Shown here in pieces: positions 15,441 to 50,051 of a stretch of 53,694 nt of DNA (within the stretch, counting starts at the first letter, position 1; every line of letters begins with the position of its first letter). The DNA is from a virus. A program made the translations under genes and the position numbers. The notes beneath the pieces were generated by a model. It was not told the DNA's origin. It saw only the letters and a program-made list of their open reading frames with translations, and did not search any database. The DNA lies in IMG/VR virus record IMGVR_UViG_3300025108_000005, one strand, 5' to 3'.

Positions 15441-16337
15441 TCAGTTTCTCCGATTTTCAAGTTTAGCTACTTGAGCAGCATATTTATCCAAGGGAACTCC
15501 TAATCTTTCAGCCAAGCGTACTTGACCGGGATTAAGATCCACTTGTTTTTTCCGTCCGCTTTTTAAGGAACGATTACCGCTCCCAGCAGGTGTGACAGAC
15601 TGGACGCTTTTCTTATCACCCTGAAACTTTTGAGGCATTTCTCGACGCATACGCTTGTCGATTTCTGCATAATATTCATCTGAAGTCGGATCATATCCCT
15701 CTTCAGCAATAAGTGTCTCGTGAATTGCACGAGCCGCACCTGTCATAACTTTATCTTGACCAAACCACTTATTCTTACCAATCCATGACTCTAGCTTCGG
15801 GTCACGCTGCTGTTGGCGTGGCTGTGGTTGCTGCTGCTGCTGCTGTGGAACTTGCTGTTGTTGAACAGCTTGAGCCTGTGATCGACCTTTTTGAACACGA
15901 AGACGTTCTTTTTCTATAGCAATTTGAGAAATAGCCTGCTGTGCATCTGCTACTTTATCATAGTCTCCAGCTTCATATGCTTCGGTCAAAGCACGTTTTG
16001 CTTGAGCCTCTTGAGAGGAGATGCGCCCCTCATACTCAGACATATATCCAGTATTTACCGTGGATAGACGCTTTTTATATTCCTCGTTTTGAGCTTGGAC
16101 TTGCTGAATGTACTGAACTGCAGCAGAAGCCTCCTCTTCAGCCTGACGGCGAGCGGCAGTTAGCTTACGAATACGCTTTTGGACATTCTCGCTATACTGG
16201 TCAAGTTCATCATCATCCTGAACATTTGTTCGGGTTTGTTCATCATCGGAGGCAGTTTCAATAACCTCATCAGAGTCGTCATCCAACTCTACAGATGTTG
16301 TTTCTTCAAATTCTTGTTCTTGAGCTTCAGCCTGCAT
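15441..16337 (-). CDS. Scaffolding protein candidate
   Basis: Start re-set to the ATG at 16335-16337 with SD AAGGAG. It has an acidic N-terminus, coiled-coil character and a polyQ tract (QQQQVPQQQQQQPQPRQQQ). Confidence 0.7.
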   Translation of the reverse strand: MQAEAQEQEFEETTSVELDDDSDEVIETASDDEQTRTNVQDDDELDQYSENVQKRIRKLTAARRQAEEEASAAVQYIQQVQAQNEEYKKRLSTVNTGYMSEYEGRISSQEAQAKRALTEAYEAGDYDKVADAQQAISQIAIEKERLRVQKGRSQAQAVQQQQVPQQQQQQPQPRQQQRDPKLESWIGKNKWFGQDKVMTGAARAIHETLIAEEGYDPTSDEYYAEIDKRMRREMPQKFQGDKKSVQSVTPAGSGNRSLKSGRKKQVDLNPGQVRLAERLGVPLDKYAAQVAKLENRRN

Positions 16338-16360
16338 GAAACCTGTCTCCTTTGTTTGCA

Positions 16361-16849
16361 CTATACATATGAAATATCTTTCGGGTCAAGGATTGTGGCT
16401 ATAATATTGTCGTCATTTATAATACGAACCTCAAGTCCTTCCACTTTAAACCTATTTCCAGCATACCTTCCTATAAGAACCCAATCTTTTTCAGAACACC
16501 AGCCCCCTGTTGGGAATTTTTGGGAGTCTTGGTATGCGTCTGGACCTAGTTTAACAACATAAGCAGCAACCGTTGCAAACGATTCACGGTCACGAATTTG
16601 ATCTGGAACATACAATCCGCCCTTGGTTTTCTCACTTGGATAATAAGGAATGATAAGCATGCGGTACCCAGTAGGTTGCGGTAGTCGCTCTAATGCTGAT
16701 GAATCCATTTCTGATGGATCATTTTCATTCTTACTTTCAGACTTATCTTTGCCAAAAGCTGTTTTTACAGGCTTTGGAAGGTCTTCCATACCTGCAGGTT
16801 TGCTTGCTTTTCTTGCCACATGTTCGGGCACATACAGTTTTTTAGTCAT
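16361..16849 (-). CDS. GroES/Cpn10-like co-chaperonin domain protein with N-terminal extension
   Basis: The pattern PTGYRMLI..EKTKGGLYVPD...A.V..LG......D.V......G......R.IN...I.A.. matches the GroES pattern. Confidence 0.7.
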   Translation of the reverse strand: MTKKLYVPEHVARKASKPAGMEDLPKPVKTAFGKDKSESKNENDPSEMDSSALERLPQPTGYRMLIIPYYPSEKTKGGLYVPDQIRDRESFATVAAYVVKLGPDAYQDSQKFPTGGWCSEKDWVLIGRYAGNRFKVEGLEVRIINDDNIIATILDPKDISYV

Positions 16850-22796: not shown

Positions 22797-25700
22797 TTAC
22801 CCCGCAAGAGCTTTCAGGAAGTTATCCGCAGTGCGATTTAAACCCGCCATTCCACCATCCTGCATAGGACGAATGTTCGCAGAAATCGGAGCAATCTTAG
22901 GCGCACGCGTTGTAATGCGCGCCATAATATCATCAAATCTACGAGATGATGGAATACCTATCCCAATTGGAGATGATACCGTATCAGACTTCTCCTCTTC
23001 CGCAGGTGGCTCACACATGTCTGTATCAGAGTTGTAAACATAACCCTCATCGTTACAGACCTTGTTTCCATCATCATCAGTTGTGTAGTTCTTTATCTCT
23101 TCAGAACCATCGTCACCGCCAGTGGTTGTTTCAGTCACACCAAGAGCCTCGGCAACGTTCTGACCGCCGCCAACTTCAAGTGGAACAGTTCCGTCTGTAA
23201 TCTCAACTACATTGCCACCTGCATCAACAAAGAACTCTTTACCATCTGAGGTAATAAATCCTTGCTCCGTTGACATGCCCGTAGGATCTGCACTCGCAGC
23301 AGTTGATTGTGCGCCAAAGACCTGCTGGAAGCGATCATAATCTGAAACACCATCACCATCTGCGTCAGCTTTATATGCAGGATTGCTATATGCAGGAAGA
23401 CTTAACGTCTGACCAACTGTAAGAGCGTCAGCTTGTGCATTCAGGCCAGAACCCCTTAGTGAATCAATCATATCCTGTGTGACAGTAAATGAAGATGCCT
23501 CAGAACTCGGCGGCATAAAGGCCATAATATCATCTGCCGCAAGAACCTTATCTGCAAAGGTATCCATAGTGCTTATGTCAAACCCAATGTAGTTGCCATC
23601 CTCATCAGTCTTCGGTGTTGCGCCATTCTGTAGCGCATACACATGCTGATCAATAATCGCCTGACGATTCTCACGGCTTGAGCCACGCAGCTTGTCAGCC
23701 AAAGGCTTGCCAAGACCAAAGCCCAAGCCACCAATAACGTCATAGAAAATTGACTCTATGCCAGTCGGCTCTGCCTGATCGCCAATTTGCTGCTTGATCT
23801 TCTCAACATTATCATCGCGACGACCTTGCTCAACCTGTCTGCCAGTCTCACTCGCAGCACCAATCGTAAGAGCAGTAGAACCTGCGCCCTTATCCAAGCC
23901 ACGCGAAATTCCCTCAAACTGCTTACCAAGCGCAGCTTCAAACTCTTCTGGAGTCAACTTGCCACTCTTCAAATCAGAAAGACCCTTGCCGCCAGCCAAG
24001 TCATTCATAACCAAATGCGTACCAATACGCTCCTGAGTGCCCTCGTCAAACTTAGCATTAGGATCAACAATTCCCTGATCAACCAAGGACTGCAACGTAG
24101 AGCCAACAACCTGATATTTACCAGCAGGCGTAGAAATAACACCAGAACCATCTGCACGAGTCATGCCACGCTGCGTGTTAACGCCTTGAGAGTAAGCAGC
24201 ATAAGAATCTTTGCCACGCAGATTCTGGAAGTCCAAGACCTCCTGAACCGTCATGTTCGTTAAATCAACGCCAAAGCGCCCCTCTTGACCACCAAGAAGA
24301 CGACCATAACCGCCCTCATCAGCCGTACCTTCAGCGCGAGAAATACGATTTTTAATCTCAGAGAGCGAAGTATAACCAGCTTCTGGCGGAGCAAAATCCT
24401 GAACAGTAGATGGAGCACCCAATCCACGCTCCAGATCAGAAACAGGACCACTTGGAAGCCCCATATCATCATCCGTAAGTGGAACATTAGTAACACGATC
24501 ACGATCAAATGGGTCCATGTCAGCATCAAGGTTCCGACCAGCCTTAGATACGTTAAGGTCAAGTATATTATCGTCAATGCCATACGTCTCTATCCCTCGA
24601 GAAGATGCAGGTAGAAATTGAGTAATGTCAGGGTCATTCATAGATGTTATAGGCTGAACTCCTAAAACACCGCCTCTAGTATCACCTAAAGGTGGAAGAC
24701 CGCCAACGCCAGCAATGTCGCTGTAAGTAATTGGTGACGGATCAAAGATATTAATCTCACGACCCTCTGGATAATTCTGAAGATACGTTGGGTAAGCCCT
24801 AGCAGCGGCTCGATTCGCTTGCTCTGGACTGTCAAAAATACCTGATTCACGAGCCGTAGCAGAAAAACTATCTATTCCCTGCTGACCAGAACCATACAAA
24901 CGTAACTGCGCAGCAAACGCACGATCAGCCGTGTCAGCCGCCGCCTGCGAGTCATGCTGATTCCCACGGCGATCCGTATATACAGGGGCAGAAACAGGAT
25001 CAATAACACTAATCACAGACGATCCGGCATTACCAGATGACGCAGTATTCAAAATATCATCAATGCTAGAACCAGTCGCAACAGTCACATTGCCACCACC
25101 AGTGTCATACGTGGTCGTACCAGTCCCAGATGTTAAATCCGCAACCGTTACAGTCTTGTCAGAACCACCAACACCAAGATCAGCGTCCTTCGCACTCGTG
25201 TTTACAGAACTTGAATCATCATCGCCGCCAAAAATCGCATCGTGATAATCAGCTACATTGTCAAAAGTATTCCCGCCATAGCTGAAACTCGTATTATCAT
25301 CCGCCTGAACGGCAGCATTCGCAATCGCATCTAAACTTACATTTCCAGATGGACCAATTGAAGAACTGTCATCATTATCGCTCTTCGCCATATCTTTTAG
25401 ACTATCCCTCACCTTGTTAATCTCAGCATAATCCCTGCTAATCACACTTTCAGGCGGATAACTCGGGATACCAGCAGGACCAGAAATGCCTGAACCACCA
25501 AAACTACGAAGCAAAGCCTCCTCATCCTGATTAATATACGCCAACATATGCGGCTGATCAGCAATCATAGTGCTGCGAGGAACAGAATCACCGCCGAAAG
25601 GGCCAGATACCTCTCCCCCCATACGCATATTATTCACATCGCCATACCCATAAAGATCAACATCACCAGTATCTATAGGCGCAATACCAGAATACATCGT

Positions 25701-27125
25701 CCCATAAGTCGGCGTACTCAAGAAATCAAAAATATCAATCTCAACAGGTCGCGCAGGCAATTTAATCGCCCCAATAGGACTCGTAGCAACCATTTCAGGA
25801 CCGTAACTCGTCGTTAAACCACCCGTAATAGGATCAGTCATATACTGAGAAACACTCGTAGGAATGTTGACCTTAGGGCCAAATAATGCAGCCTGCTCAC
25901 GCGTACCCAGCGTAACAACGCCAGTCTCAGGATCAACAGTGTCATAACCACCAGTCGTCCTACCAACATCACCAGTAAACTGACTGTAATCAATCTCATT
26001 AACCTCACTAGGATCAACAGGAGCAGCCGTATAACTACCAGTGCCAAAATTACCACCAGCACCTACCGCACTGCCAGCACCAGCTTGCGCCCCAGTAATC
26101 GTAGAAACAGGAGCAGAAGTAACCTTATCCACAGAAACAGAAGCCTGAGAAGGTGCCTCATATTCACCAACATAAACACGAACAGGAGTCCAACCTGTCT
26201 CGTCACTACCCTCCCAGTTAAGAACATTATCACCAAAACGATAATTCATAATGTCCGCCATATCCATAACAGCACCACGAGTGCTGCGGTAACGACCATC
26301 ACCCAAATCCTCATAGCCAGCATTCAATAAATTAGAACGAACCATAGACTCACGAGCAGGATCAGACGAATAACCAGAACGTGCCTCACCCATATAATCA
26401 AAACCCTGACCCTCAATCGCAGATTTAGCCGCAGAAATACTGCCATAACCAGCCTGAACCGTCGGGTCTAAATCATCACGACCAAAAAGCGCATTAAACG
26501 AAACAGGATTACCCGAAGAATCAACAACCTTGTAACGCTCACCGCTACGAACAACATTCAAATCAGAACCAGAACCTAAACCAGACGAAGATGACTCCTT
26601 AACCAAGTCATAATACTCATCCATACTACCAATCCCCTCACCCAAAACAGGGGGACCACCATCCTCAAAATACTGTACAGGACCACCATCAGCATAACCA
26701 AAAATATCAACCTCACCACCCATAGCCATAGGACGAGGCGCCATAGACTGCATCGGAGGAGTACGCATCATAGGAGTGCCCGGCGCAACCATACGCTGCT
26801 GTGGCATCATCTGGGGCGGCATCGCACTCTGAGGCTGTGGCATGGACGCACCCAAACCCTGATTGCGACCCAACATCCCCTCTAACGCATCGCCAAAACG
26901 ACGACGACGACCCGCCGTAGATCCCTGCATCTGCTGACCCTGAGGCATAGGTGGCATCTGAGGAGGTGGACCCCCAGCCAACGGCATCGGAGGCATAGGC
27001 GCAAAAGGATTCGGAGGGGGAGCAGATGGCATGCCCGGTGAAGGCGGCATACCACCCATAGGCTGCATCGGTGCAGGCATTCCGGGCATCGGCGGGGGAG
27101 TCATTCCAGTCTTAACTGCAGGCAT
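22797..27125 (-). CDS. Giant internal-virion/ejection-type protein (1442 aa) with Met/Pro-rich N-terminus and lytic transglycosylase domain
   Basis: Start re-set to the ATG at 27123-27125 with SD AGGAGA. It is a single ORF, and the stop abuts the terL start. Confidence 0.9.
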   Translation of the reverse strand: MPAVKTGMTPPPMPGMPAPMQPMGGMPPSPGMPSAPPPNPFAPMPPMPLAGGPPPQMPPMPQGQQMQGSTAGRRRRFGDALEGMLGRNQGLGASMPQPQSAMPPQMMPQQRMVAPGTPMMRTPPMQSMAPRPMAMGGEVDIFGYADGGPVQYFEDGGPPVLGEGIGSMDEYYDLVKESSSSGLGSGSDLNVVRSGERYKVVDSSGNPVSFNALFGRDDLDPTVQAGYGSISAAKSAIEGQGFDYMGEARSGYSSDPARESMVRSNLLNAGYEDLGDGRYRSTRGAVMDMADIMNYRFGDNVLNWEGSDETGWTPVRVYVGEYEAPSQASVSVDKVTSAPVSTITGAQAGAGSAVGAGGNFGTGSYTAAPVDPSEVNEIDYSQFTGDVGRTTGGYDTVDPETGVVTLGTREQAALFGPKVNIPTSVSQYMTDPITGGLTTSYGPEMVATSPIGAIKLPARPVEIDIFDFLSTPTYGTMYSGIAPIDTGDVDLYGYGDVNNMRMGGEVSGPFGGDSVPRSTMIADQPHMLAYINQDEEALLRSFGGSGISGPAGIPSYPPESVISRDYAEINKVRDSLKDMAKSDNDDSSSIGPSGNVSLDAIANAAVQADDNTSFSYGGNTFDNVADYHDAIFGGDDDSSSVNTSAKDADLGVGGSDKTVTVADLTSGTGTTTYDTGGGNVTVATGSSIDDILNTASSGNAGSSVISVIDPVSAPVYTDRRGNQHDSQAAADTADRAFAAQLRLYGSGQQGIDSFSATARESGIFDSPEQANRAAARAYPTYLQNYPEGREINIFDPSPITYSDIAGVGGLPPLGDTRGGVLGVQPITSMNDPDITQFLPASSRGIETYGIDDNILDLNVSKAGRNLDADMDPFDRDRVTNVPLTDDDMGLPSGPVSDLERGLGAPSTVQDFAPPEAGYTSLSEIKNRISRAEGTADEGGYGRLLGGQEGRFGVDLTNMTVQEVLDFQNLRGKDSYAAYSQGVNTQRGMTRADGSGVISTPAGKYQVVGSTLQSLVDQGIVDPNAKFDEGTQERIGTHLVMNDLAGGKGLSDLKSGKLTPEEFEAALGKQFEGISRGLDKGAGSTALTIGAASETGRQVEQGRRDDNVEKIKQQIGDQAEPTGIESIFYDVIGGLGFGLGKPLADKLRGSSRENRQAIIDQHVYALQNGATPKTDEDGNYIGFDISTMDTFADKVLAADDIMAFMPPSSEASSFTVTQDMIDSLRGSGLNAQADALTVGQTLSLPAYSNPAYKADADGDGVSDYDRFQQVFGAQSTAASADPTGMSTEQGFITSDGKEFFVDAGGNVVEITDGTVPLEVGGGQNVAEALGVTETTTGGDDGSEEIKNYTTDDDGNKVCNDEGYVYNSDTDMCEPPAEEEKSDTVSSPIGIGIPSSRRFDDIMARITTRAPKIAPISANIRPMQDGGMAGLNRTADNFLKALAG
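23980..24350 (-). other. Lambda-R-like (GH104-type) lytic transglycosylase domain inside the giant protein
   Basis: RAEGTADEGGYGRLLGG...STPAGKYQVVGSTL parallels lambda R WSEGT...GYDVIVGG...STGAGRYQLL. The putative catalytic Glu codon is at 24330-24332. Confidence 0.65.
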
Positions 27126-27178
27126 CCAATAAATTCTCCTAAACGAACCTAACACGCATCCTAACAGCTACTCAAAAT

Positions 27179-27549: not shown

Positions 27550-27579
27550 TTTATGGGACAGTCTAGGGTACCTTGTCAA
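27550..27579 (-). promoter_or_regulatory. Sigma70-like promoter for the late operon
   Basis: Minus strand reads TTGACA(27574-27579)-18 nt-CATAAA(27550-27555). The -35 overlaps an iteron copy. Confidence 0.45.
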
Positions 27580-27676
27580 GCCGTAGGGTACCTTGGAAGG
27601 GACAAACGGTGACATCCACCTTTAGGGGGTGTCCCTTGTCCATAGGGTACCTTGAAGGGCTTAGGGTACCTTGTGA

Positions 27677-27696
27677 TTTTTTTAAAAAATTTTTTT
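27677..27696. promoter_or_regulatory. T7-A6-T7 tract (possible DNA-unwinding element)
   Basis: tttttttaaaaaattttttt lies immediately next to the iteron pairs. Confidence 0.5.
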
Positions 27697-27790
27697 GTGG
27701 TGACTGTAGGTGGATTTCTTAGTGTAAGTGCTGTCCGACACGCGCCAGAATATAGGGGGGGGTGCATGGCCCCCATATCCCCCGTTTCTA

Positions 27791-27802
27791 GAACAATTGT
27801 TC
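27791..27802. promoter_or_regulatory. Perfect 12-bp palindrome GAACAATTGTTC (copy 1)
   Basis: Exact palindrome in intergenic DNA between the amidoligase terminator and the iterons. Confidence 0.85.
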
Positions 27803-27829
27803 GGTTTTCTTAGGGTACCTTGGAAAAGC

Positions 27830-27852
27830 AAAAAAGCCCGCACTAGGCGGGC
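27830..27852 (-). terminator. Rho-independent terminator after the amidoligase gene
   Basis: Minus strand reads GCCCGCctagtGCGGGC followed by tttttt. Confidence 0.75.
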
Positions 27853-27882
27853 TTCTCTGTGGCTGTGGCATGGTCTTGACGC

Positions 27883-28953
27883 TTAACGCGCCAAGTATTC
27901 TATTCGCTCTTGCCAATATTCAAATATGTCGTCGGATGTTTCAGCCCATATTGACGCGATGCCACGCTCGCTTTCGTCGCGCAATTGAACAGCGCCGTCG
28001 GTTGTCTGAAACGCCGTCAACACTTCGTAGCGCGTGTGATCTGTTCCGTCACCATATGACGCGCCGTTTGATTGTTGCGTGTGGGTGACAACCGCGCTTT
28101 CGCCAACGCGCTGCCGGATTTCAGTAACAGCGGCGCGGACGCGCTGCTCACTACAGCCGGTTGCGTCCATGATGTCGCGCGTTGAAACGCCACCATTATC
28201 ATTGCGCATCATGGTGTACTGAACGCCAACGCGTGAATTTCTGCGAAATGGCCCAACCGGCGTATCTTGAACAATTGTTCTGGTGCCATTTTCAACGCGG
28301 TTTTCAATTGTGTGGTTGATGAAATTCAAAAGGAATTTTACCCAATTGATAATTTTGTCCGCGTCAATTGTGCCACCATGCTGACGAAATTCAATTGTGC
28401 CACTACGCCATGTGTCGAGATTAATCGCATAGAATTTGCCATGATTTAATTCGCTAATTGTTGAAGCGTTTTCTATGCGCGATGCGCTCAATGGTTGCGC
28501 GTATCGGTTCATGGTGCGCGAACGTGCAAACATACTATCCAGCGTTGCTTGCTGGCGCTCATAGCGATACATGATGTCCTTTACCACCACGGCGTCCATA
28601 GGTTCACCATGCGCTGACAGAAAACCACCACGCGCCTCAGTGTGTGCAATGCTTGCACCAGTAAAATCTGCGGCGTTTACGCCGTCTAATGGCGCGTTTG
28701 AAATGTGAACGTGCAAGCCACATGATGTATTGATTGCACAACCAACGTTTTCCAAAACGCGGCAAACGCTTTTGATATAGTCCTCAGCAATTGGATGATT
28801 GCCCAATGGTGGCAATACGATTTCAGCGTCAACGTTCGGTGTGCCGTCTGGCTTTACTTGGCAACCGATAATTCCAGCGCGTTCCAGTGCATTTTTAACG
28901 CGGCTTATTGAAACGCCGCTTGTTTCGATTTCTATTCCAAATGTGTAAGTCAT
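27883..28953 (-). CDS. Putative amidoligase (Amidoligase_2 / GS-like COOH-NH2 ligase family) with about 110-aa C-terminal extension
   Basis: N-terminal FGIEIE, central CGLHVHIS and GTIEFRQHGGT match my recollection of the Amidoligase_2 signature. The C-terminal STRDIMDATGCSEQRVRAAVTEIRQRVG looks HTH-like. Confidence 0.75.
   Translation of the reverse strand: MTYTFGIEIETSGVSISRVKNALERAGIIGCQVKPDGTPNVDAEIVLPPLGNHPIAEDYIKSVCRVLENVGCAINTSCGLHVHISNAPLDGVNAADFTGASIAHTEARGGFLSAHGEPMDAVVVKDIMYRYERQQATLDSMFARSRTMNRYAQPLSASRIENASTISELNHGKFYAINLDTWRSGTIEFRQHGGTIDADKIINWVKFLLNFINHTIENRVENGTRTIVQDTPVGPFRRNSRVGVQYTMMRNDNGGVSTRDIMDATGCSEQRVRAAVTEIRQRVGESAVVTHTQQSNGASYGDGTDHTRYEVLTAFQTTDGAVQLRDESERGIASIWAETSDDIFEYWQERIEYLAR
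28269..28280. promoter_or_regulatory. Perfect 12-bp palindrome GAACAATTGTTC (copy 2, inside the amidoligase CDS)
   Basis: Encodes RTIVQ at about residue 224, where the recognisable amidoligase core ends. Confidence 0.85.
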
Positions 28954-29068
28954 TGTTTTTGTTACCTTTTTTCTAGATTGTAGGGCAAAGCTGTCGCCCT
29001 ATACCTAGTTTATGCGCCATTTTTTCCCATAATACAAGGGGTTTTGTGGGATATTGTGGGATAAACCA

Positions 29069-29080
29069 GAACAATTGTTC
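29069..29080. promoter_or_regulatory. Perfect 12-bp palindrome GAACAATTGTTC (copy 3)
   Basis: Lies upstream of the amidoligase gene. The extended match GAACAATTGTTCGGGTT(A/G)TTG is shared with copy 4. Confidence 0.85.
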
Positions 29081-29110
29081 GGGTTATTGATTTGACCAAC
29101 GCCGCGACAC

Positions 29111-29138
29111 AAAAAAAGCGCGCCAAAATTGACGCGCG
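29111..29138 (-). terminator. Rho-independent terminator (minus strand)
   Basis: Minus strand reads GCGCGtCAAttTTGgCGCGC followed by ttttttt. Confidence 0.7.
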
Positions 29139-29183
29139 AAAATCGGTTTTTTTTATATTTATAGAGAACGCGCGCGATCATGC

Positions 29184-29236
29184 GTGTGTATATGTGTATA
29201 TGTGTGTAGTTATATATACATAGGTATATATACTAT
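29184..29236. repeat. Alternating purine-pyrimidine (TG/TA)n tract
   Basis: gtgtgtatatgtgtatatgtgtgtagttatatatacataggtatatatactata. Confidence 0.85.
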
Positions 29237-29237
29237 A

Positions 29238-29299
29238 CCCCGAACCCCGAAGCCCGAAGCCCGAACCCCGAAAGCCCGACCCCGAAGGATCAGGCCCGA
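29238..29299. repeat. Tandem heptamer array (G/C)CCCGAA (TTCGGG(G/C) on the minus strand)
   Basis: Five perfect back-to-back 7-mers at 29238-29272, then three more units with small spacers up to 29299. Confidence 0.9.
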
Positions 29300-29303
29300 T
29301 TGT

Positions 29304-29600
29304 TTATTTCATTGTATGCGCAAGTGTTGTCATTGCACTCGTTGTCGGGTTCCCGTTGTTCACGATAAAAGTATAGCAATGAACGTTGCAGGCAAGAACA
29401 CCGAAGCGTTCAGCGTCATGGTATCTCATGAATTGAGGCTCCTCATCCATATCAACTGGTTCAGAAGTGCCGTAGTTTTTAACTGCCCATTGGCAAAATT
29501 CTTGGAAAGGCTTTTCGTCCTCATATTCAAACCCGCTCGTGTCATCATAAAACAGCGCGGTTGCCCAAAACTCGGGCAACTCCAGTGTGATCGTTTCCAT
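29304..29600 (-). CDS. Hypothetical acidic protein
   Basis: Start re-set to the ATG at 29598-29600 (TAATG coupling, SD GAGGGGG). 98 aa, METITLELPEFW... Confidence 0.75.
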   Translation of the reverse strand: METITLELPEFWATALFYDDTSGFEYEDEKPFQEFCQWAVKNYGTSEPVDMDEEPQFMRYHDAERFGVLACNVHCYTFIVNNGNPTTSAMTTLAHTMK

Positions 29601-29788
29601 TATTCCACCCCCTCTAATACTTCCATTGCATGCTCTAAGGCTTCTTGCTCGTTGTCGATTCCGTAGCAAGTAAAGCAATGATAATCGACCCACTGTCCTT
29701 GGATCGGGGTCTGCAAGTTAAAAGTTGCTGACTCGTTCCACTCAATGCGAAGATAATCGCCGTTATGCTCTAATTCCCAGTGTTTCAT
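29600..29788 (-). CDS. Hypothetical small protein
   Basis: 62 aa with SD AAGGAG. Confidence 0.75.
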   Translation of the reverse strand: MKHWELEHNGDYLRIEWNESATFNLQTPIQGQWVDYHCFTCYGIDNEQEALEHAMEVLEGVE

Positions 29789-29799
29789 TGTTTTTCTCC

Positions 29800-30111
29800 T
29801 TAATATCTGGCTGCGTAATAGCGCATTTGATCAATGGCCACATCGTTTGCAATTTTATAATTACCTTCGTCGTACTGACGCATAATAAATGCTTTCAGCG
29901 CATTTTCGTTATTGCAAATAAAATCCAAGAAATCGTCACGATCTTCTTCGTCGTCAAAATCAATCACTCCATCAATATTGCGCGATGCATCTCTAAAAAC
30001 GATGTCGTGCTTTAGAAACTGATCGTCATATGAGCCATTGTCTTTGATAAGAGTGTTCAGCACTTGCTCTGTGTCGTACTGCCTACCTGTTTCGATCATT
30101 TTAAAAAACAT
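29800..30111 (-). CDS. Hypothetical acidic protein
   Basis: Start re-set to the ATG at 30109-30111 with SD GAGGAAAAAG. 103 aa. Confidence 0.75.
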   Translation of the reverse strand: MFFKMIETGRQYDTEQVLNTLIKDNGSYDDQFLKHDIVFRDASRNIDGVIDFDDEEDRDDFLDFICNNENALKAFIMRQYDEGNYKIANDVAIDQMRYYAARY

Positions 30112-30143
30112 TTTCTTTTTCCTCACTACTAGACTGTAATCCC

Positions 30144-30172
30144 ACATTATCCCACACATTATTATATGTCAA
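30144..30172 (-). promoter_or_regulatory. Sigma70-like promoter for the 3-gene cassette
   Basis: Minus strand reads TTGACA(30167-30172)-17 nt-TAATGT. The spacer carries TGGGATAatgTGGGAT. Confidence 0.45.
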
Positions 30173-30195
30173 CACAAAATATAAAAAAAATTATG

Positions 30196-30486
30196 CCGGG
30201 CCGTGCCGGGTAAAACTGCCGGGGATTCATCCGGGCGCGAACAATTGTTCGGGTTGTTGTTCCGGGAATGCGTCGGGAGTTTACCGGGAAGGAGTTCCGG
30301 GCAGGCCAGCGACGGGAAGATGTTACCGGGGAGCTTTACCCGAACAATTTCTCGGGTTATACTATACCCGGAAGCCCGAATCCCGAATGCCCGGAGAGCC
30401 GCAGAGCGCCCCTAAGAGTTAACCCGAACAATTTAGGCACCCAGACACCCCGAAAACCCGAAACCCCGACCAGACGGCCCCGAAAA
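30196..30486. repeat. Dispersed short-repeat array: about 12 (C/T)CGGG units at 10-14-bp spacing, then about 7 CCCGAA units
   Basis: CCGGG/TCGGG at 30196, 30206, 30219, 30231, 30250, 30262, 30273, 30284, 30297, 30311, 30325. CCCGAA at about 30339, 30374, 30381, 30423, 30449, 30457, 30479. Confidence 0.85.
30239..30250. promoter_or_regulatory. Perfect palindrome GAACAATTGTTC (copy 4; 14-bp CGAACAATTGTTCG here)
   Basis: Embedded in the CCGGG array. Confidence 0.85.
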
Positions 30487-30531
30487 CGGCTCTGAGGGCG
30501 GGCGGAAGCCCCTCCCCTCCAAGAGTTCCCG

Positions 30532-31056
30532 CTATTCTGCGGCTTCGCCGTTACAATCAGTTATAGGGATTGGTTCGGATTCTGTGGGATTTTCTGTTGG
30601 TGTTACGTCAATCATGCGATTTTTAGCACGATCCATAAATTCTTGCAGTTGTTCTACGATTTGATCCCTGCTGAGATTATCAACGTGTTCGTGTGTGACA
30701 TGGCTACGCGCTACCATGAGGCCCGTGACCTTTAGCCTAAGTTCTTCTGCTTTGATAGCTGCGGAGAAGTTGCCTTGCTCCCATGCCTCATCGCGCAACC
30801 GCTGCATATCCCGAACAGATTTGGTTATTGTTACGCCGTACTTGCTTTCGAGTTCTTGGCGCATTTCTTCCATGCGTTCTTTTACGCGTGGATGATTGAG
30901 AAGCTGCACGGCTGATACGTTCGGGTTTTTATATCCCGCTGCTCTGGCTGCTGCGGTTTGCGTCATGTCTTTGTGAATGTAGTTATCAAGAAACTTCTGC
31001 TGCGGGGGAGTTAGTCGCTTTTCCCCTTTTGCTATCTGTTCTCCGACCTTTGGCAT
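30532..31056 (-). CDS. terS: Terminase small subunit (Terminase_2-like HTH)
   Basis: LTPPQQKFLDNYIHKDMTQTAAARAAGYKNPNVSAVQLLNHPRVKERM is the typical TerS N-terminal HTH, followed by a coiled-coil core. Confidence 0.75.
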   Translation of the reverse strand: MPKVGEQIAKGEKRLTPPQQKFLDNYIHKDMTQTAAARAAGYKNPNVSAVQLLNHPRVKERMEEMRQELESKYGVTITKSVRDMQRLRDEAWEQGNFSAAIKAEELRLKVTGLMVARSHVTHEHVDNLSRDQIVEQLQEFMDRAKNRMIDVTPTENPTESEPIPITDCNGEAAE

Positions 31057-31101
31057 TTGTGCTTCTACCCGAATAATTTCTCGACTTGTTCCCCTGCTGT
31101 T

Positions 31102-31129
31102 ATACTACCCGATACGCTGCTGCGGTCAA
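31102..31129 (-). promoter_or_regulatory. Possible terS promoter
   Basis: Minus strand reads TTGACC(31124-31129)-16 nt-TAGTAT(31102-31107). Confidence 0.4.
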
Positions 31130-31190
31130 GTGCTACATTTCCCAAAATATCCCAACATTGCATCGGGCTGCGCTGCGTTAAAAAACATCA

Positions 31191-31226
31191 GGGGGGGGTT
31201 AGTATATACCCCCCCTTATAGGGGGG
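31191..31226. repeat. Homopolymer G8 / C7 / G6 tracts able to form alternative hairpins
   Basis: G8 at 31191-31198, C7 at 31209-31215, G6 at 31221-31226. The TATAGGGGGGTG box also occurs at 27751-27764. Confidence 0.85.
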
Positions 31227-31390
31227 TGACGTAGATAACGTAAATTAACCTATTGATTTTATTACGTTATTTACGTCAAAACGACTTTTTAACGTAATTC
31301 CCGTAAATCGTTAAACCGTTGATTTTATTACATATTCTACGTTACGTTACTTACGTCAGCTTTTGACGTAAATTATTTTGACGTAAATTA
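31227..31390. repeat. ACGT-core repeat array (TGACGTAA / TTACGTCA), including a perfect tandem 15-mer
   Basis: About 10 ACGT cores in 160 bp. ttttgacgtaaatta occurs at 31361-31375 and 31376-31390, with inverted copies at 31270-31281 and about 31350. ttgattttattac is duplicated at 31253 and 31319 (66-bp period). Confidence 0.9.
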
Positions 31391-31415
31391 ATATAAAATA
31401 GTTTATAAAAAGTTA

Positions 31416-31445
31416 TTGACAGTCCCAAACTATCCCATATATAAG
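31416..31445 (+). promoter_or_regulatory. Early rightward sigma70-like promoter
   Basis: TTGACA(31416-31421), spacer gtCCCAaacTATCCCAt, then TATATA/TATAAG. AAGGAGG lies before the ATG at 31484. Confidence 0.6.
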
Positions 31446-31483
31446 ATGTATATTCTAGTAAGCAAGGAGGCTACAGAATCCAC

Positions 31484-31879
31484 ATGGATTACACAGCAAA
31501 AACACGAATCATCCGCGATCTACAGGGCGACCTATTAGATAGCAATCACGCAACCCGCCGCTTTTTCCGCTGTTGGTTGGACGGCTCTTATTTGGGCGAG
31601 GAGCACTACAGGGACAACGTTGCGTATTTGCGCCAGTCTTTGTCTCGCTATGGCGTAGGCATGAAGTTAGAGGCCAAAATTCGCGGTTGGGTGATTGGTC
31701 AATTTGTGCGCTACACGGCGCACGATGCTCAGTGTTCACACGGTTACGCTCAGAGGGTTATCGTTGACACGGTTGATGGCGAAACGCTGTCAGAGTTGAC
31801 GCATCATTTAATCACGGACGCGCTTGATCTGATTGAAGATGATATTCGCGAACATTTGAAGGAAACTGCTAATGTTTGA
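31484..31879 (+). CDS. Hypothetical early protein
   Basis: 131 aa with a strong SD AAGGAGG. Confidence 0.85.
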   Translation: MDYTAKTRIIRDLQGDLLDSNHATRRFFRCWLDGSYLGEEHYRDNVAYLRQSLSRYGVGMKLEAKIRGWVIGQFVRYTAHDAQCSHGYAQRVIVDTVDGETLSELTHHLITDALDLIEDDIREHLKETANV

Positions 31880-32099
31880 GATTGAAAAAGGTATTCCGAT
31901 TCCAGATGGCGAGGGGCGTGGGCGCGAGAAAAGCCCATTGCGCCTTGCTGTGGAGAAAATGGAAGTTGGCGATAGCGTTTTGGTTAGTAAAACGCACCGT
32001 CAGCAGCTTCATGCCGTGTCGAATACACTTGGCATTAAGTACAAAACCCGAACAATTTGCAAAGAAAGCAAAACGGTTCGTTTTTGGCGCACAAAATAA
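31872..32099 (+). CDS. Small hypothetical protein (MFEIEKGIPIP...VGDSVLV...VRFWRTK)
   Basis: 75 aa, overlapping the upstream stop. Confidence 0.8.
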   Translation: MFEIEKGIPIPDGEGRGREKSPLRLAVEKMEVGDSVLVSKTHRQQLHAVSNTLGIKYKTRTICKESKTVRFWRTK

Positions 32100-32103
32100 C
32101 ATT

Positions 32104-32126
32104 GGGGGCGCAATGCCCCCTTTATT
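32104..32126 (+). terminator. Weak terminator or attenuator hairpin
   Basis: GGGGGCgcaatGCCCCC followed by tttatt. Confidence 0.45.
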
Positions 32127-32143
32127 CTAGCAAAGGAGAAGAC

Positions 32144-32545
32144 ATGTATTATTTAGCATATGGAATGAACACGAACCGCGAGGCTATGGCTGCGCGATGC
32201 CCTAATGCCAAGCCTATGGGCGGCTTTTATTTACCTGACCACCGTTTGACGTTTCGCGGAGTGGCTGACTTTCGCTACGATGCTGACATGGTTTTACCAG
32301 TTGTTTTGTGGGAGATTACGCACGATTGTTTGAGGGCGTTAGACCGACTTGAGGGCTACCCGACTTTGTACGACCGCCGCAAGATCAACGGCAATTGGTT
32401 GATTTACGATATGAACGGCAACAAGGGCGCACTGGGCACACCGTCTGGCGGCTACTATAAAATGATTGAGGAGGGCTACCGAGACTTTGGGCTTGATGAT
32501 TGGTATTTACGCGCTGCGGCGAAAGATGCGGAGTTAGCGGCATGA
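32144..32545 (+). CDS. Gamma-glutamyl cyclotransferase-like (AIG2/GGCT family) protein
   Basis: Start re-set to the ATG at 32144 with SD AAAGGAGAAG. MYYLAYGMNTN...ALDRLEGYPTLYDRR matches the YxxYGSN...LD.xEG..Y.R signature. Confidence 0.8.
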   Translation: MYYLAYGMNTNREAMAARCPNAKPMGGFYLPDHRLTFRGVADFRYDADMVLPVVLWEITHDCLRALDRLEGYPTLYDRRKINGNWLIYDMNGNKGALGTPSGGYYKMIEEGYRDFGLDDWYLRAAAKDAELAA

Positions 32546-44900: not shown

Positions 44901-45122
44901 ATGGGAGTTATGCTAGTGCCTAAGCCATCAAAATACAAGTCTATAGGTGTCAGCACAGACACTTATGAAAAAATAGTTCAAATGGCGGAGAAAGAACGCC
45001 GCAACATTTCGCAGCAATTGTCGCTTCTTGTTGATCGTGAGTATGAATCTTACGGTATGACAAGACAGCCCACACCTGCTCGTATTGTTACAGGTGGTCT
45101 ATCCGCAATCATTGAAGATTAA
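44901..45122 (+). CDS. Possible ribbon-helix-helix (CopG/Arc-like) protein
   Basis: KSIGVSTDTYEKIVQMAEKERRNISQQLSLLVDREY is RHH-like. There is no clear SD or promoter. Confidence 0.4.
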   Translation: MGVMLVPKPSKYKSIGVSTDTYEKIVQMAEKERRNISQQLSLLVDREYESYGMTRQPTPARIVTGGLSAIIED

Positions 45123-48100
45123 AGAAGCCCCGCGCTTCCAAGACCCCCTAGTAGTGTAGAAGCTATATAGGGGTTTCTTTTTGCGCGTTCACGCAAGCTC
45201 TGCTGTTGCTGGATAATCCGGGGGTCTATTTTTTGGGTTATCTGCATATTTTCTGCATTTACCGGGGGAAGCACTTGTGGAACACTTGTTCGGCTTGTGC
45301 GTGGCTGCTCCGGGGGAGTTCCGCGAACCTGCTGGGGAGAAGTAAGTAACTGCCCCAAGCCCTGACGAGTTGCTACATTGCCGCGATTGATCGCTCCAAG
45401 TGTAGCACCTACACCCTTTACCGCCCCTGCTGCCCGTTGCGTTAACGGTACACCTTCTCCAGTAACTTGCGCTGCTGATTCGTTCAGTGCTTGCGTTAGG
45501 CTTTGTGCCGCTGCCTGTGGGCTTGTGCGACCTGCCTTAACTTCTAACGCACGGCGCATAACTGTTGGGTTGTTTATCATATGGTTCAACACACGAAAGC
45601 GACCCGCTTTGGGGATATTCTTCAGTGGGTTTGTGTACTGACCTGTACGGATAGCGTCTGCAGCTAGTGAACCCGCGCCTCTTGCCCCTGTATCACGCAA
45701 GAAAACAAGGTCATCAGCCATTTGTTTGATGTCTTTTACTGCCTGTTCTCCAAGAACTTTGTTCAGCATTTCAGGCTTATAAGACTCCAGCGCATTACGA
45801 AGAGAGTAAGCTGCTTTCTCGTTAATGAAGATATCTTCGTCTACTGAACCAAGAATATCATTAACAATTGTTCGTTTTATTGTGTTTTGAGCTTCCGGGC
45901 TATCTTCAAAGAACTTCAGGATGCGGTTCATTTGCGCACGGGTCATGTTGCGATTTGTGATCGCCGCTGCTGCTTCTTCTGGGTCTAGGTTTCCTGAGTT
46001 TAAACGGCGTAAGATGCTAGACTGAGATGCTTCTTCTAGTCCGACCTGCGCATCACGAACGCTACGCAGTGTTTGAACAATTCCTGCATCTGGGTTCTGA
46101 GCCACGATGCGCTGAAGCGTTGCGTCATCAATCTTTTTAACGCCCCCGTAAGCCAGTGATTTTGCTAGGCTTTGAACTTCGCCCCACTGATCGCCAAACA
46201 ATAGCTTACCAGTTTTGTCTTTGTTCATACGCTTGATTTTGCCGTAGAACTGAACACCGTTAAACTTCGTTGGGTCTGCGAAGTCTTTGTTAGAATCAAG
46301 CAGTGCTTCGTCAAGATAACGCTTTGCTAGGTCTTGCCGAACAACTTCTTTCTGACCTTTGGCTGCTTCCAACGCAGCTTCAATACGCGCTGGGCTTTGA
46401 ATGATTTTGTCGTAGTTCCGACCAACTTCCAGCTTAACGTTCACTCCCGGTTCACCAAGATTCCGAACAATTCCTAAGTTCTCTAAACGATTGAACATAC
46501 GCATCTCTGCGCGATAGGCTTTGTTTGCATCTTGCAACAAGCTCATAGCTGTACGCATTTTATTTGCATTTCCAGAGCCACCAATACCAGTTAGCTTGAC
46601 ATCTCCCTGCAACATAGTGTCAACGTTGTTGCGTAGATCGACTAAAAGACGGCGAGGGGTGGTGTCTGAGATACTTAGTTTAGGGTCCATCAAAGTATCT
46701 TGAATGTTTTTACGCAGTGCGCGAAGACCGTTAAATGAAGTAAAGCCTACTTCTGAACCTTTACTCACAAGGTCATTAATCTGTGCGCCAATCGCTGTAA
46801 ATTCGTCAGGTGCCGTAGATGCTGCACCGCCGTATCTGCTATCAATCACATCATCAAAGCGCGTTTTTATCGCACGAATATCAAAGACTGGAAGTTCGCC
46901 ACCCTCAACCTGAACTGTTCTGCCATTTATTGTGATAGGGCCAGTGATTTCTGCCAGCTTATCATCAACAGCCTTGTAGTTAGTGTTCGCGCCTTTTGCG
47001 AACTCATCATAGTTATACATCAGGACATCAAGTACAGCGTCATCAATCTCAGTACCCTCTTTCGTTGACTTTGAAAGAATAGAGATTGTCTCATCAATTG
47101 CCTTCATGTGTGCTTCTTGGGCATCATCCAAGGAACGTTGCAACTGATTTGCCTTATTCGGTGCAGAATCAGCGATAACTTTCGCAAGGTCATCAGTGGT
47201 TGCGCCTGCCACAATCTGTCCTGATTCATCCATAATGCCTGCTTCTTTAAGTAGTTTTTCCTTTTTACCAAGAGCAAAGACTACGTTTTGAACTGCACGT
47301 TTTTCTTTTCCCGAAATTGCTTCTGCGATTTGAGATGCACGAGATACCGCTGCAGGCATACCCGCTGCTTCATAGCTTGGCATACCACCCTCATCCATAA
47401 TCCGCAGAGCCTGTTCGGCTTGTGCCTGACCTAGTTGACGTTCACCCTGTCCTGCAGCACGAGCAACTGCACTTGCGCCTTTGCCTGCGCCTTGAATAAG
47501 CGCACGGCCTGCTTTAAATGTGCCCATAGTCGCAAGGTCAATTGTGCCTGCCAAAGCACCTTCGATAGCAGCCTGCTTCGCAACTTCAGTACCAGTTTGC
47601 TGCTGCAGACCAAGTAAGTTTTCAATTCCTTCTTCAAGAAGCTGACCACCAGCCGCACCCACACCTGCACCAACCGCACCACCGATAAGGGTTGGCGCAC
47701 CGATGATACCACCGATTACAGAACCGATTGTTTCAGGAGCTAGTCCTGCAACGTCAGCAAGATCACGACCAAGACGGAAGCCCTCTTCCTCAATGACAAG
47801 GTTTTTCTCAATTGGTTCGTAGCCTAGCTTTGCCTGACCTTCAGGGGTCAACGCCAAGCGTCCCTTGGAATCTTTGGTGAAACCAGACTCACCAACCTTT
47901 TGGCGCAGTAGGTTTTCTTTTTCCTGTGGCGTTTCCATGAAAGAAAGAGCCGCACGAATGCCGCCTTTTGCGCCAGTGGTATAATCAAAGTTACCTAAGT
48001 CTTTGCCAGTGGATGATGCGCTTAATTCTTCAAAAGATTTAGGACGGGCCATACCTAAAGAACTGCCGCGAGATTGAGAGGCACGAAGTTGCTTTAACTC

Positions 48101-48166
48101 CTCAAGAGGGGTTAAAGATTTTTCCTGAGACTTTCTGATAGCGGCAAGCTCTTCTTGTGGAGTCAT
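45119..48166 (-). CDS. Large internal-virion/ejection-type protein (1015 aa) with Gly-rich hydrophobic segment
   Basis: GSVIGGIIGAPTLIGGAVGAGVGAAGG. ATGA coupling to the upstream gene. Confidence 0.9.
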   Translation of the reverse strand: MTPQEELAAIRKSQEKSLTPLEELKQLRASQSRGSSLGMARPKSFEELSASSTGKDLGNFDYTTGAKGGIRAALSFMETPQEKENLLRQKVGESGFTKDSKGRLALTPEGQAKLGYEPIEKNLVIEEEGFRLGRDLADVAGLAPETIGSVIGGIIGAPTLIGGAVGAGVGAAGGQLLEEGIENLLGLQQQTGTEVAKQAAIEGALAGTIDLATMGTFKAGRALIQGAGKGASAVARAAGQGERQLGQAQAEQALRIMDEGGMPSYEAAGMPAAVSRASQIAEAISGKEKRAVQNVVFALGKKEKLLKEAGIMDESGQIVAGATTDDLAKVIADSAPNKANQLQRSLDDAQEAHMKAIDETISILSKSTKEGTEIDDAVLDVLMYNYDEFAKGANTNYKAVDDKLAEITGPITINGRTVQVEGGELPVFDIRAIKTRFDDVIDSRYGGAASTAPDEFTAIGAQINDLVSKGSEVGFTSFNGLRALRKNIQDTLMDPKLSISDTTPRRLLVDLRNNVDTMLQGDVKLTGIGGSGNANKMRTAMSLLQDANKAYRAEMRMFNRLENLGIVRNLGEPGVNVKLEVGRNYDKIIQSPARIEAALEAAKGQKEVVRQDLAKRYLDEALLDSNKDFADPTKFNGVQFYGKIKRMNKDKTGKLLFGDQWGEVQSLAKSLAYGGVKKIDDATLQRIVAQNPDAGIVQTLRSVRDAQVGLEEASQSSILRRLNSGNLDPEEAAAAITNRNMTRAQMNRILKFFEDSPEAQNTIKRTIVNDILGSVDEDIFINEKAAYSLRNALESYKPEMLNKVLGEQAVKDIKQMADDLVFLRDTGARGAGSLAADAIRTGQYTNPLKNIPKAGRFRVLNHMINNPTVMRRALEVKAGRTSPQAAAQSLTQALNESAAQVTGEGVPLTQRAAGAVKGVGATLGAINRGNVATRQGLGQLLTSPQQVRGTPPEQPRTSRTSVPQVLPPVNAENMQITQKIDPRIIQQQQSLRERAKRNPYIASTLLGGLGSAGLL

Positions 48167-50040: not shown

Positions 50041-50051
50041 AATTGTTCGCC

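Follow-up and report, generated by a model that had tools for sequence, protein, structure and literature searches.

Neighbourhoods in which a ligase of the Amidoligase_2 family lies beside an AIG2/gamma-glutamyl cyclotransferase (GGCT) protein are said to have been predicted for phages and prophages by Iyer, Abhiman, Burroughs and Aravind in 2009. The description of the Pfam family PF12224 reportedly names the ligase with AIG2/GGCT, without an amidotransferase, as one of two types of neighbourhood. Amidoligase_2 is also found with class-II glutamine amidotransferases in phiEco32, in mycobacteriophages and in the OM43 phages MEP401/402, and the function of these sets is unknown (PMC10580990). 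The family has been annotated in many phage groups, including actinophages and Pseudomonas, Bacillus, gut and marine phages. Although a role was predicted in 2009, no published substrate for a phage member was found. Here we analyse a ligase and a GGCT encoded by a 53,694-nucleotide stretch of viral DNA, IMG/VR record IMGVR_UViG_3300025108_000005 (the whole stretch is referred to as the window). Comparison of related loci indicates that the two genes form a conserved two-enzyme module in a marine phage lineage, in which the ligase carries a C-terminal winged helix-turn-helix (wHTH) domain and is accompanied by a dedicated palindrome. An initial annotation, made from the letters of the window alone, had pointed to both enzymes and had stated that no phage system of this kind was characterised experimentally. 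In agreement with this statement, our survey of the searchable literature found no experimental characterisation of a phage amidoligase or of an amidoligase/GGCT set; the word "amidoligase" in a 2026 PNAS paper refers to an ATP-grasp enzyme, so that this paper has no bearing on the pair.

Two enzymes and their linkage

The ligase has the motifs FGIEIE, CGLHVHIS and EFRQHGGT on which the initial annotation based its assignment to Amidoligase_2, and the assignment holds in profile searches. The protein matches PF12224 with 74.3 bits (cutoff 22) over residues 36-211, and the PHROG family phrog_2443, "amidoligase enzyme", with an E-value of 7e-17. Conservation was checked for the motifs GxExE, DxE, CGxHVH and ExR. 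Among 27 homologues of 55-96% identity, E8, E10, D42, E44, C78-G79-L80-H81, H83, E188 and R190 are invariant, and the catalytic motifs are also kept in relatives at 34% identity. The AlphaFold2 (AF2) model of the ligase (pLDDT 84) strongly matches predicted phage amidoligases in BFVD by Foldseek (E 7e-11). Its best match in the PDB is a glutamine synthetase (GS), 8fbp, and this match is weak (E 7e-4, TMq 0.29-0.30); by sequence, no solved structure was matched with either the single sequence or a profile. Thus, by its sequence, the ligase is a member of Amidoligase_2, a family of carboxylate-amine ligases with a predicted GS-like fold; its catalytic residues are intact, and ATP-dependent joining is predicted.

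The GGCT open reading frame (ORF) contains the motifs YYLAYGMN and LDRLEGYPTLYDRR. Its score against the Pfam family GGACT (PF06094) is marginal, 23.2 bits with a cutoff of 22.8, so that both ORFs lie above the curated thresholds of the families initially named for them. It matches phrog_2520, "gamma-glutamyl cyclotransferase", with an E-value of 1.8e-23, and human GGCT is recovered by a profile built from its homologues (E 2.6e-10), with the YG(S/M)N motif aligned. The AF2 model (pLDDT 95) superimposes on human GGCT (2rbh/3cry/2i5t) with TMq 0.75-0.79 and a Foldseek probability of 1.0, and it also matches GGACT, ChaC2 and YtfP. Y6, G7, N9 and E70 are invariant among the homologues. The counterpart of Glu70 (in LDRLEGYP) in the human protein is the Glu of LDEQEG, taken here to be catalytic Glu98. 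Sequence and model together thus identify a true enzyme of the GGCT fold that has kept its catalytic Glu, and release of 5-oxoproline is predicted.

More than 340 full-length homologues of the ligase, of 54-96% identity, are present in marine metagenomes. Linkage was analysed in 80 IMG/VR ligase loci, which include relatives down to 34% identity. The C-terminal domain is kept in all 80. At 50 loci a GGCT homologue is encoded no more than 4 kb upstream of the ligase, and almost all of the others end too early; where at least 4.1 kb of upstream sequence is available, it is present at 34 of 35 loci. The link that the initial annotation had assumed is therefore borne out, and it is found in two layouts, divergent as in the window and co-directional (16 loci). 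At 13 of the 16 co-directional loci, GGCT ends 300-1200 nt before the ligase start on the same strand. The opposite-strand layout, which had been presented as a distinguishing feature, is thus only one arrangement of the pair. It had also been described as two genes on either side of a divergent control region. The strands are indeed opposite, but the ligase does not lie at the control region (31057-31483), from which it is separated by the terS-like gene and three small ORFs.

The same pair recurs elsewhere. Genes 41 and 45 of Bacillus phage 035JT001 encode a ligase and a GGCT, and both are also found on contigs of Legionella, Fluviibacter and Clostridia. In addition, the pair has been annotated in Clostridium prophages, including those of C. 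clostridioforme (PMC11318856). This recurrence in unrelated backgrounds argues that the module is real, and the retention of both genes across the lineage identifies them, as far as sequence comparison goes, as a conserved two-enzyme module. The initial annotation noted that no amidotransferase partner was evident, and indeed no class-II amidotransferase appears among the Pfam matches of the ~70 window ORFs or in the Pfam annotation of the source contig. Its absence does not set the window apart, however, since the Bacillus phage and the Clostridium prophages have the same annotated pair.

GGCT homologues without a ligase also exist, so that the link is strong and yet not obligatory for the GGCT family. 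One, 44% identical to that of the window, lies on a ~60-kb contig (L168, NCBI JBJKNJ010004310.1, 5532-11243) with no amidoligase nearby. Its neighbours encode GTP cyclohydrolase I (FolE), PTPS/QueD, a radical-SAM QueE-like protein and a phosphoribosyltransferase, that is, a 7-deazaguanine-type cluster. Another ligase-free homologue is found on a 193-kb contig (L169).

The two enzymes differ in variability. Among loci selected for a terS-like protein with 84% or more identity to that of the window (n=50), identity to the window is 33-91% for the catalytic domain of the ligase, 46-98% for its C-terminal domain and 69-98% for GGCT. By DNA comparison, the whole ligase cassette is replaced at three loci (L172, L182 and L229). 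Four further loci (L040, L050, L051 and L054) are mosaics in which only codons ~15-170 of the ligase are replaced; in these, similarity persists in the promoter, in the first codons and in all that follows from the GKF...GTIEFRQ motif. The catalytic core of the ligase is thus hypervariable, at the level of sequence, within otherwise conserved backbones.

The wHTH domain and the palindrome

An extra HTH-like domain at the C-terminus of the ligase had been suspected from the sequence, and structure prediction gives a wHTH. In the AF2 model, helices at 241-249, 258-265 and 269-283 are followed by beta-wing strands, and Foldseek matches SmtB and a MarR-like protein, with a probability of 0.99 for 1smt (SmtB) and of 0.97 for 1ku9. 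By hmmscan the domain resembles DUF3489 with E-values of 2e-5 to 0.06, and divergent members of the family score better than the window protein; the scores, 13.9 bits for the window and 24.5-25 for divergent homologues, stay below the cutoff of 29.5. By its sequence the domain is therefore related to DUF3489 and is not a member by the Pfam rule. When the domain alone was searched exhaustively against 1.84 billion cluster representatives, only 70 clusters were found, and nearly all of them are 360-440-aa proteins with the domain at the C-terminus, i.e., the ligase fusion. On this sampling of sequences, the fusion is nearly confined to this marine lineage.

The few exceptions have the domain at the N-terminus of short proteins. 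A longer ligase-free protein of 962 aa, P0279 (L093, 546-3434, a Logan assembly), begins with a wHTH 52% identical to that of the ligase, followed by two RNA-polymerase alpha-CTD-like domains and then sigma-70 region 4. This unusual transcription-factor architecture argues for a DNA- or transcription-related role of the domain. The contigs of P0279 and two other ligase-free wHTH proteins (P0276 and P0278) lack the palindrome described below, and these contigs are only 1.1-4.6 kb long. From the modelled fold, the wHTH of the ligase probably binds DNA, and the obvious candidate site is the AACCC-GAACAATTGTTC palindrome.

GAACAATTGTTC was initially described as flanking and interrupting the ligase gene, and its four exact copies in the window (Table 1) agree with that description. 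By chance, 0.004 exact copies would be expected, or 0.3 with one mismatch allowed. Across relatives the palindrome is extended and oriented, with the consensus AACCCGAACAATTGTTC, or AACCC-GAACAATTGTTC-GgGtT. The 22-bp palindrome AACCCGAACAATTGTTCGGGTT may, from its sequence, be the DNA target of the C-terminal domain. The 80 related loci have 144 exact copies of GAACAATTGTTC, with recurring offsets from the ligase start of -116, ~-290, +680 (in the gene) and +1150 (just past the stop); further recurring copies lie farther upstream, toward the terS-like gene. When IMG/VR was scanned for the 17-mer, more than 119 stretches were recovered, and essentially all of them belong to this lineage; the palindrome lies mostly within ~2 kb of the ligase.

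The copy inside the gene is unusual in its codons. At this site the codons are nearly fixed (xGA 45/47, ACA 41/46, ATT 45/46 and GTT 30/42), whereas the conserved residues flanking it use mixed codons. Fixation of synonymous positions points to selection on the DNA itself. The in-gene copy was also considered as a recombination breakpoint of the mosaic ligases and was rejected, because similarity in L040, L050, L051 and L054 resumes ~150 nt upstream, near GKF...GTIEFRQ. In the putative recognition helix of the wHTH, R273, S277, E278 and R280 are invariant, while other parts of the helix vary and the palindrome stays constant. The constancy of the site despite a varying helix could be due to these invariant residues.

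The palindrome is not restricted to the vicinity of the ligase. Exact AACCCGAACAATTGTTC is found inside homologues of the head-module ORF 15441-16361 in eight relatives (L171, L185, L188, L226, L234, L241, L243 and L256), and at the corresponding place in its own head gene (16220-16231), ~12 kb from the ligase, the window carries GAACATTTGTTC, which differs by one mismatch. L173, a relative of low G+C, has six copies downstream of its terS-like gene, where they set small gene cassettes apart from one another. Thus the palindrome appears to be a boundary or regulatory site of the whole lineage, not private to the ligase. The wHTH of the ligase, the terS-like HTH protein and small HTH ORFs may each be its binder.

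The ligase gene itself reads as a self-contained minus-strand unit, with its own candidate promoter, a leader hairpin and terminators on both sides; the terminators had already been proposed by the initial annotation. On the minus strand, the order is terminator, palindrome, candidate promoter, hairpin, gene, terminator and palindrome (Table 1). An Rfam scan of the intergenic regions gave nothing above threshold, including no glutamine riboswitch.

Table 1. Features of the region encoding the ligase and GGCT (positions in the window; a dot marks palindromes without a strand).
Feature	Position	Strand	Evidence or remark
GAACAATTGTTC palindrome, 81 nt downstream of ligase stop, just past terminator	27791..27802	.	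exact copy
Predicted intrinsic terminator of ligase transcript, with U-run	27828..27857	-	fold prediction; -22.4 kcal/mol, z -3.1
Ligase, 356 aa: Amidoligase_2 (aa 1-~220) fused to C-terminal wHTH (aa ~225-356)	27883..28953	-	Pfam, AF2, Foldseek
C-terminal wHTH of ligase, DUF3489-like below Pfam threshold	27886..28281	-	secondary structure, Foldseek, weak Pfam
GAACAATTGTTC palindrome inside ligase gene, coding R-T-I-V at the joint of catalytic domain and wHTH	28269..28280	.	exact copy
Ligase 5' leader hairpin just before ribosome-binding site	28973..29008	-	-16.4 kcal/mol, z -3.9; 0/200 shuffles as stable
Candidate sigma-70-type promoter of ligase, TTGTAT-N17-CATAAA	29009..29037	-	read by eye
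GAACAATTGTTC palindrome, 116 nt upstream of ligase start	29069..29080	.	offset -114 to -117 recurs in many relatives
Predicted intrinsic terminator at the end of the upstream small-ORF unit; 8-bp G+C stem, then U7	29111..29137	-	fold prediction
GAACAATTGTTC palindrome between terS-like gene and first small cassette ORF	30239..30250	.	exact copy
terS-like HTH protein (Terminase_2)	30532..31056	-	Pfam/PHROG; invariable neighbour of module
131-aa ORF, no family match	31484..31879	+	accompanies GGCT in both gene layouts (e.g. L047, L049, L073)
GGCT-fold enzyme, 133 aa; YGMN motif and Glu70 in LDRLEGYP intact	32144..32545	+	Pfam, PHROG, profile, AF2/Foldseek

Other repeats lie in the non-coding DNA around this unit. 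Five copies of TAGGGTACCTTG (27561-27827), a quasi-palindrome around GGTACC, occur in the 400 bp of non-coding DNA that separate the ligase terminator from the start of the late/structural operon. One copy overlaps a TTGACA -35-like hexamer, and the copies resemble operator or activator sites for a late promoter. Downstream of the terS-like gene, a 376-bp non-coding region (30160-30535) is dense in CCGGG/CCCGA repeats with ~10-30-nt spacing and has three AACCCGAACAATT half-sites, and a shorter CCCGAA-rich run occurs at 29230-29295. These two regions, without a match in Rfam, may be an origin or an array for pac/terS binding. The divergent control region, which has the terS-like gene on one side and the early operon of the plus strand on the other, has dense direct and inverted repeats of TGACGTAA/TTACGT at 31226-31390, including a tandem TTTTGACGTAAATTA x2. 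A promoter-like site, TTGACA-N17-ATATAA, is found at 31416, downstream of the TGACGTAA array.

Possible functions of the pair

Characterised ligases of the GS superfamily, such as GS, gamma-glutamylcysteine ligase (GCL), PuuA and PafA, phosphorylate the gamma-carboxylate of glutamate and pass it to an amine. Enzymes of the GGCT fold, such as GGCT, GGACT, ChaC and BtrG, cleave gamma-glutamyl-amine bonds into 5-oxoproline and the free amine, and they need a free alpha-amino group. Taken together, the two chemistries make it most likely that the pair writes and erases a gamma-glutamyl amide, so that the gamma-glutamyl-type tag suggested by the initial annotation is plausible on this analysis. In the form that we prefer, and to which we give an even chance, ligase and GGCT are the writer and the eraser of one gamma-glutamyl group, which is carried by an amine. 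During infection, the ligase would activate the gamma-carboxylate of Glu with ATP and join it to an amine-bearing target, and GGCT would remove the group as 5-oxoproline and free the amine. The acceptor would be recognised by the variable core of the ligase (~aa 15-170) and the gamma-glutamyl moiety by the conserved GGCT, and the wHTH would bind DNA, with AACCC-GAACAATTGTTC as the candidate site. The contrast between a hypervariable ligase core and a conserved GGCT agrees with an acceptor that varies for the writer and a gamma-glutamyl moiety that is constant for the eraser, and it also suggests an arms-race role. If a macromolecule of the host or the phage is gamma-glutamylated, this would be a new reversible modification in phage-host biology.

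Several observations weigh against this writer/eraser reading. If both enzymes acted on the same bond at the same time and on the same target, they would merely consume ATP in a futile cycle. No acceptor candidate was identified. The ligase model resembles GS weakly (E 7e-4, TMq 0.3), the Glu donor is extrapolated from distant members of the superfamily, and no biochemistry of any Amidoligase_2 enzyme was found in the searchable literature. In the window, ligase and GGCT are on opposite strands in different transcription units and may therefore differ in expression time. At one related locus, L078, GGCT is absent from the 5.2 kb that are available upstream, and GGCT homologues of 44-49% identity exist in other phages without the ligase.

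The ligase-wHTH protein could be primarily a transcription regulator that acts on GAACAATTGTTC operators, which would mark each transcription unit from the terS-like gene to the late operon. The ligase domain would then sense or consume a metabolite, and GGCT would reset the signal. Trigger enzymes of this sort have parallels in BirA and in the GS/TnrA-GlnR pair of B. subtilis. Consistent with such a role are the resemblance of the wHTH fold to SmtB and MarR-like proteins and the joining of the same domain to alpha-CTD-like domains and sigma-70 region 4 in P0279. So are the near confinement of the palindrome to the lineage, mostly at fixed offsets within ~2 kb of the ligase, the synonymous constraint that keeps its in-gene copy, and the invariant R273, S277/E278 and R280 that accompany an unchanging site. 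If the wHTH does bind the palindrome, this would be a rare phage enzyme doubling as a regulator. Nevertheless, we consider a primarily regulatory protein unlikely. The catalytic residues are invariant, which indicates that enzyme activity itself is under selection, and the terS-like HTH protein and the small HTH ORFs are equally possible binders. Moreover, many small cassettes are flanked by the palindrome in L173, of which 3.2 kb could be inspected and contain no ligase, relatives keep a copy inside a head-module gene, and short contigs encode stand-alone versions of the wHTH without the palindrome. A more specific proposal, which seems rather improbable to us, is that a ligase-wHTH dimer on AACCC-GAACAATTGTTC operators couples gamma-glutamyl ligation, and thereby the Glu/ATP/amine status of the host, to a late-transcription switch, with GGCT as the reset; these operators may include the site within the ligase coding sequence and the one in the head gene. 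In a related scheme, gamma-glutamylation of a DNA-bound protein or of a polyamine may be tethered to DNA at the palindromes.

Separation of the two genes onto opposite strands and into different units of the window would be expected if their functions were independent, with GGCT acting on gamma-glutamyl compounds of the host (glutathione-related peptides) and the ligase on something unrelated, both being old residents of the lineage. Ligase-free GGCT homologues such as those of the FolE/QueD/QueE cluster on L168 and of L169 agree with independence, as does the pairing of many phage amidoligases with amidotransferases instead (PMC10580990). Yet the linkage outlasts the rearrangement that puts GGCT directly upstream of the ligase, the same pairing is found in a Bacillus phage, Legionella, Fluviibacter and Clostridia, and the nearest cultured relatives lack both genes together; on balance, independence seems to us quite doubtful. 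The DNA-binding-type domain might also bring the ligase to phage DNA, where a modified base would be amidated and the adduct trimmed by GGCT. Genes for amidoligase and amidotransferase co-occur with thymidine-hypermodification genes in viromes, though their role there is unknown (PMC8989533), and a GGCT homologue lies in the 7-deazaguanine cluster of another phage. However, no dUMP hydroxymethylase, 5-HMUDK, aGPT-Pplase, TET/JBP, DpdA or Que gene was detected in the window by Pfam and PHROG scans, and a sequence-specific wHTH with a handful of sites would give poor access to bases genome-wide, so that hypermodification is very improbable. Nearly as remote is the addition of an amino acid to peptidoglycan or a surface polymer by the ligase, for envelope modification or superinfection exclusion. 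A hypervariable core would suit a gene at the host interface, and the idea has been credited for phiEco32 to Iyer et al. 2009 in secondary citations only (PMC10580990; PMC11318856). Against an envelope target, no signal peptide or membrane segment is visible in the ligase translation, no cell-wall genes are linked to the module, and the DNA-binding-type domain is hard to reconcile with it.

Genome setting and comparison with known systems

The window comes from an uncultured marine podophage, whose genome it covers nearly in full. A 53,804-bp JGI contig from a marine metagenome (Ga0208667_1000040) is a circular permutation of it, and the genes at the right end of the window run on into those at its left end, so that the genome is probably complete. 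The G+C content is ~46%, and the identical ligase protein is present on 21 contigs. No close cultured relative was found by megablast. The large terminase subunit, TerL, is 55-62% identical to that of Pelagibacter phages HTVC027P and HTVC023P and of phages 023Pt_psg01 and DSL-LC04; for HTVC027P/023P the value is 60%. Ligase and GGCT are both missing from these four phages, and the palindrome is missing from HTVC027P and 023Pt_psg01. HTVC027P gp35, at a roughly comparable position, was considered as a counterpart of the ligase and is unrelated to it. A search for the host through GTDB found full-length relatives only on short contigs binned into metagenome-assembled genomes, with inconsistent taxonomy (Rhodobacteraceae, Marinomonas, Nitrosomonas and Alphaproteobacteria).

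By Pfam and PHROG scans, no integrase, amidotransferase or DNA-modification genes were detected in the window, and PADLOC and NCBIfam gave no match for the ligase, GGCT or their neighbours. Genes for a primase/helicase, a DEAD helicase, AAA_24 and PD-(D/E)XK proteins are present, whereas a recognisable DNA polymerase was not found in any part of the window. A minus-strand ORF of 1442-1452 aa (22797-27155), situated between TerL and the ligase region, has an extremely Pro/Met/Gln/Gly-rich N-terminus and no recorded Pfam domain; contigs with identical sequence on either side of it differ in its length (1341-1444 aa). On the minus strand, 45119-51338 is taken up by three large ORFs in a row (1015, 625 and 428 aa). 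None has a PHROG match, and their sole Pfam match is a borderline Dockerin_1 in the 428-aa ORF (22.9 bits, at the cutoff).

Among known systems, butirosin biosynthesis follows the logic of a writer/eraser pair. The ATP-dependent ligase BtrJ adds a gamma-glutamyl group to an amine, and the GGCT-fold enzyme BtrG later removes it as 5-oxoproline. The same protecting-group logic is proposed for the window pair. However, BtrJ is an ATP-grasp enzyme and not GS-fold, and its substrates are intermediates bound to a carrier protein; the large biosynthetic cluster to which it belongs has no counterpart in the window. In pupylation, the GS-superfamily ligase PafA joins the gamma-carboxylate of a Glu to lysine, and Dop is the dedicated removal enzyme. 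The window pair is similar in combining a GS-superfamily ligase with a dedicated removal enzyme, but its eraser has the GGCT fold and its ligase has no significant sequence match to PafA. Since a GGCT-fold eraser needs a gamma-glutamyl group with a free alpha-amino group, a single Glu tag is likelier than a protein tag. Among the related loci, no universally linked small ORF ending in Gly-Gly-Gln/Glu, as a Pup-like tag would, was found. A minus-strand 62-aa ORF upstream of the ligase (29600-29788) ends in -LEGVE, with a C-terminal Glu, and is a possible ligase substrate; as it occurs in a subset of loci only, it is unlikely to be an obligatory tag. BirA combines a ligase and a wHTH in one polypeptide and has a palindromic site near its own gene. 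The window ligase shares both properties, although its ligase fold is unrelated, its HTH is C-terminal instead of N-terminal, and its DNA binding is predicted.

Nearest of all are the phage neighbourhoods themselves. With the predicted Amidoligase_2 and AIG2/GGCT neighbourhoods, the window shares the same families within a few kb, the lack of an amidotransferase and a location in the early/accessory region of a phage. Among the partners that define the Iyer-Aravind systems, an AIG2/GGCT protein in a conserved neighbourhood was found, whereas a class-II amidotransferase or Ntn peptidase was not. The amidotransferase-containing sets of lytic marine and enteric phages have the same ligase family, and there the difference is that the partner in the window is GGCT. 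In Amidoligase_2 and GGCT sets elsewhere, the ligases are ~290 aa long without a wHTH, and the window ligase is 26-30% identical to them in the N-terminal domain only; here a C-terminal wHTH and a dedicated, lineage-wide palindrome are added, and the two genes of the window are on opposite strands. The pairing of a ligase with AIG2/GGCT is therefore of an already known kind, and neither the missing amidotransferase nor the opposite-strand layout is new. What is new is the wHTH fusion, the dedicated palindrome with its in-gene copy and the hypervariability of the ligase. The lineage thus provides a minimal case, with two enzymes, no amidotransferase and hundreds of natural alleles, in which a built-in domain of the DNA-binding type with an obvious candidate site gives a practical handle.

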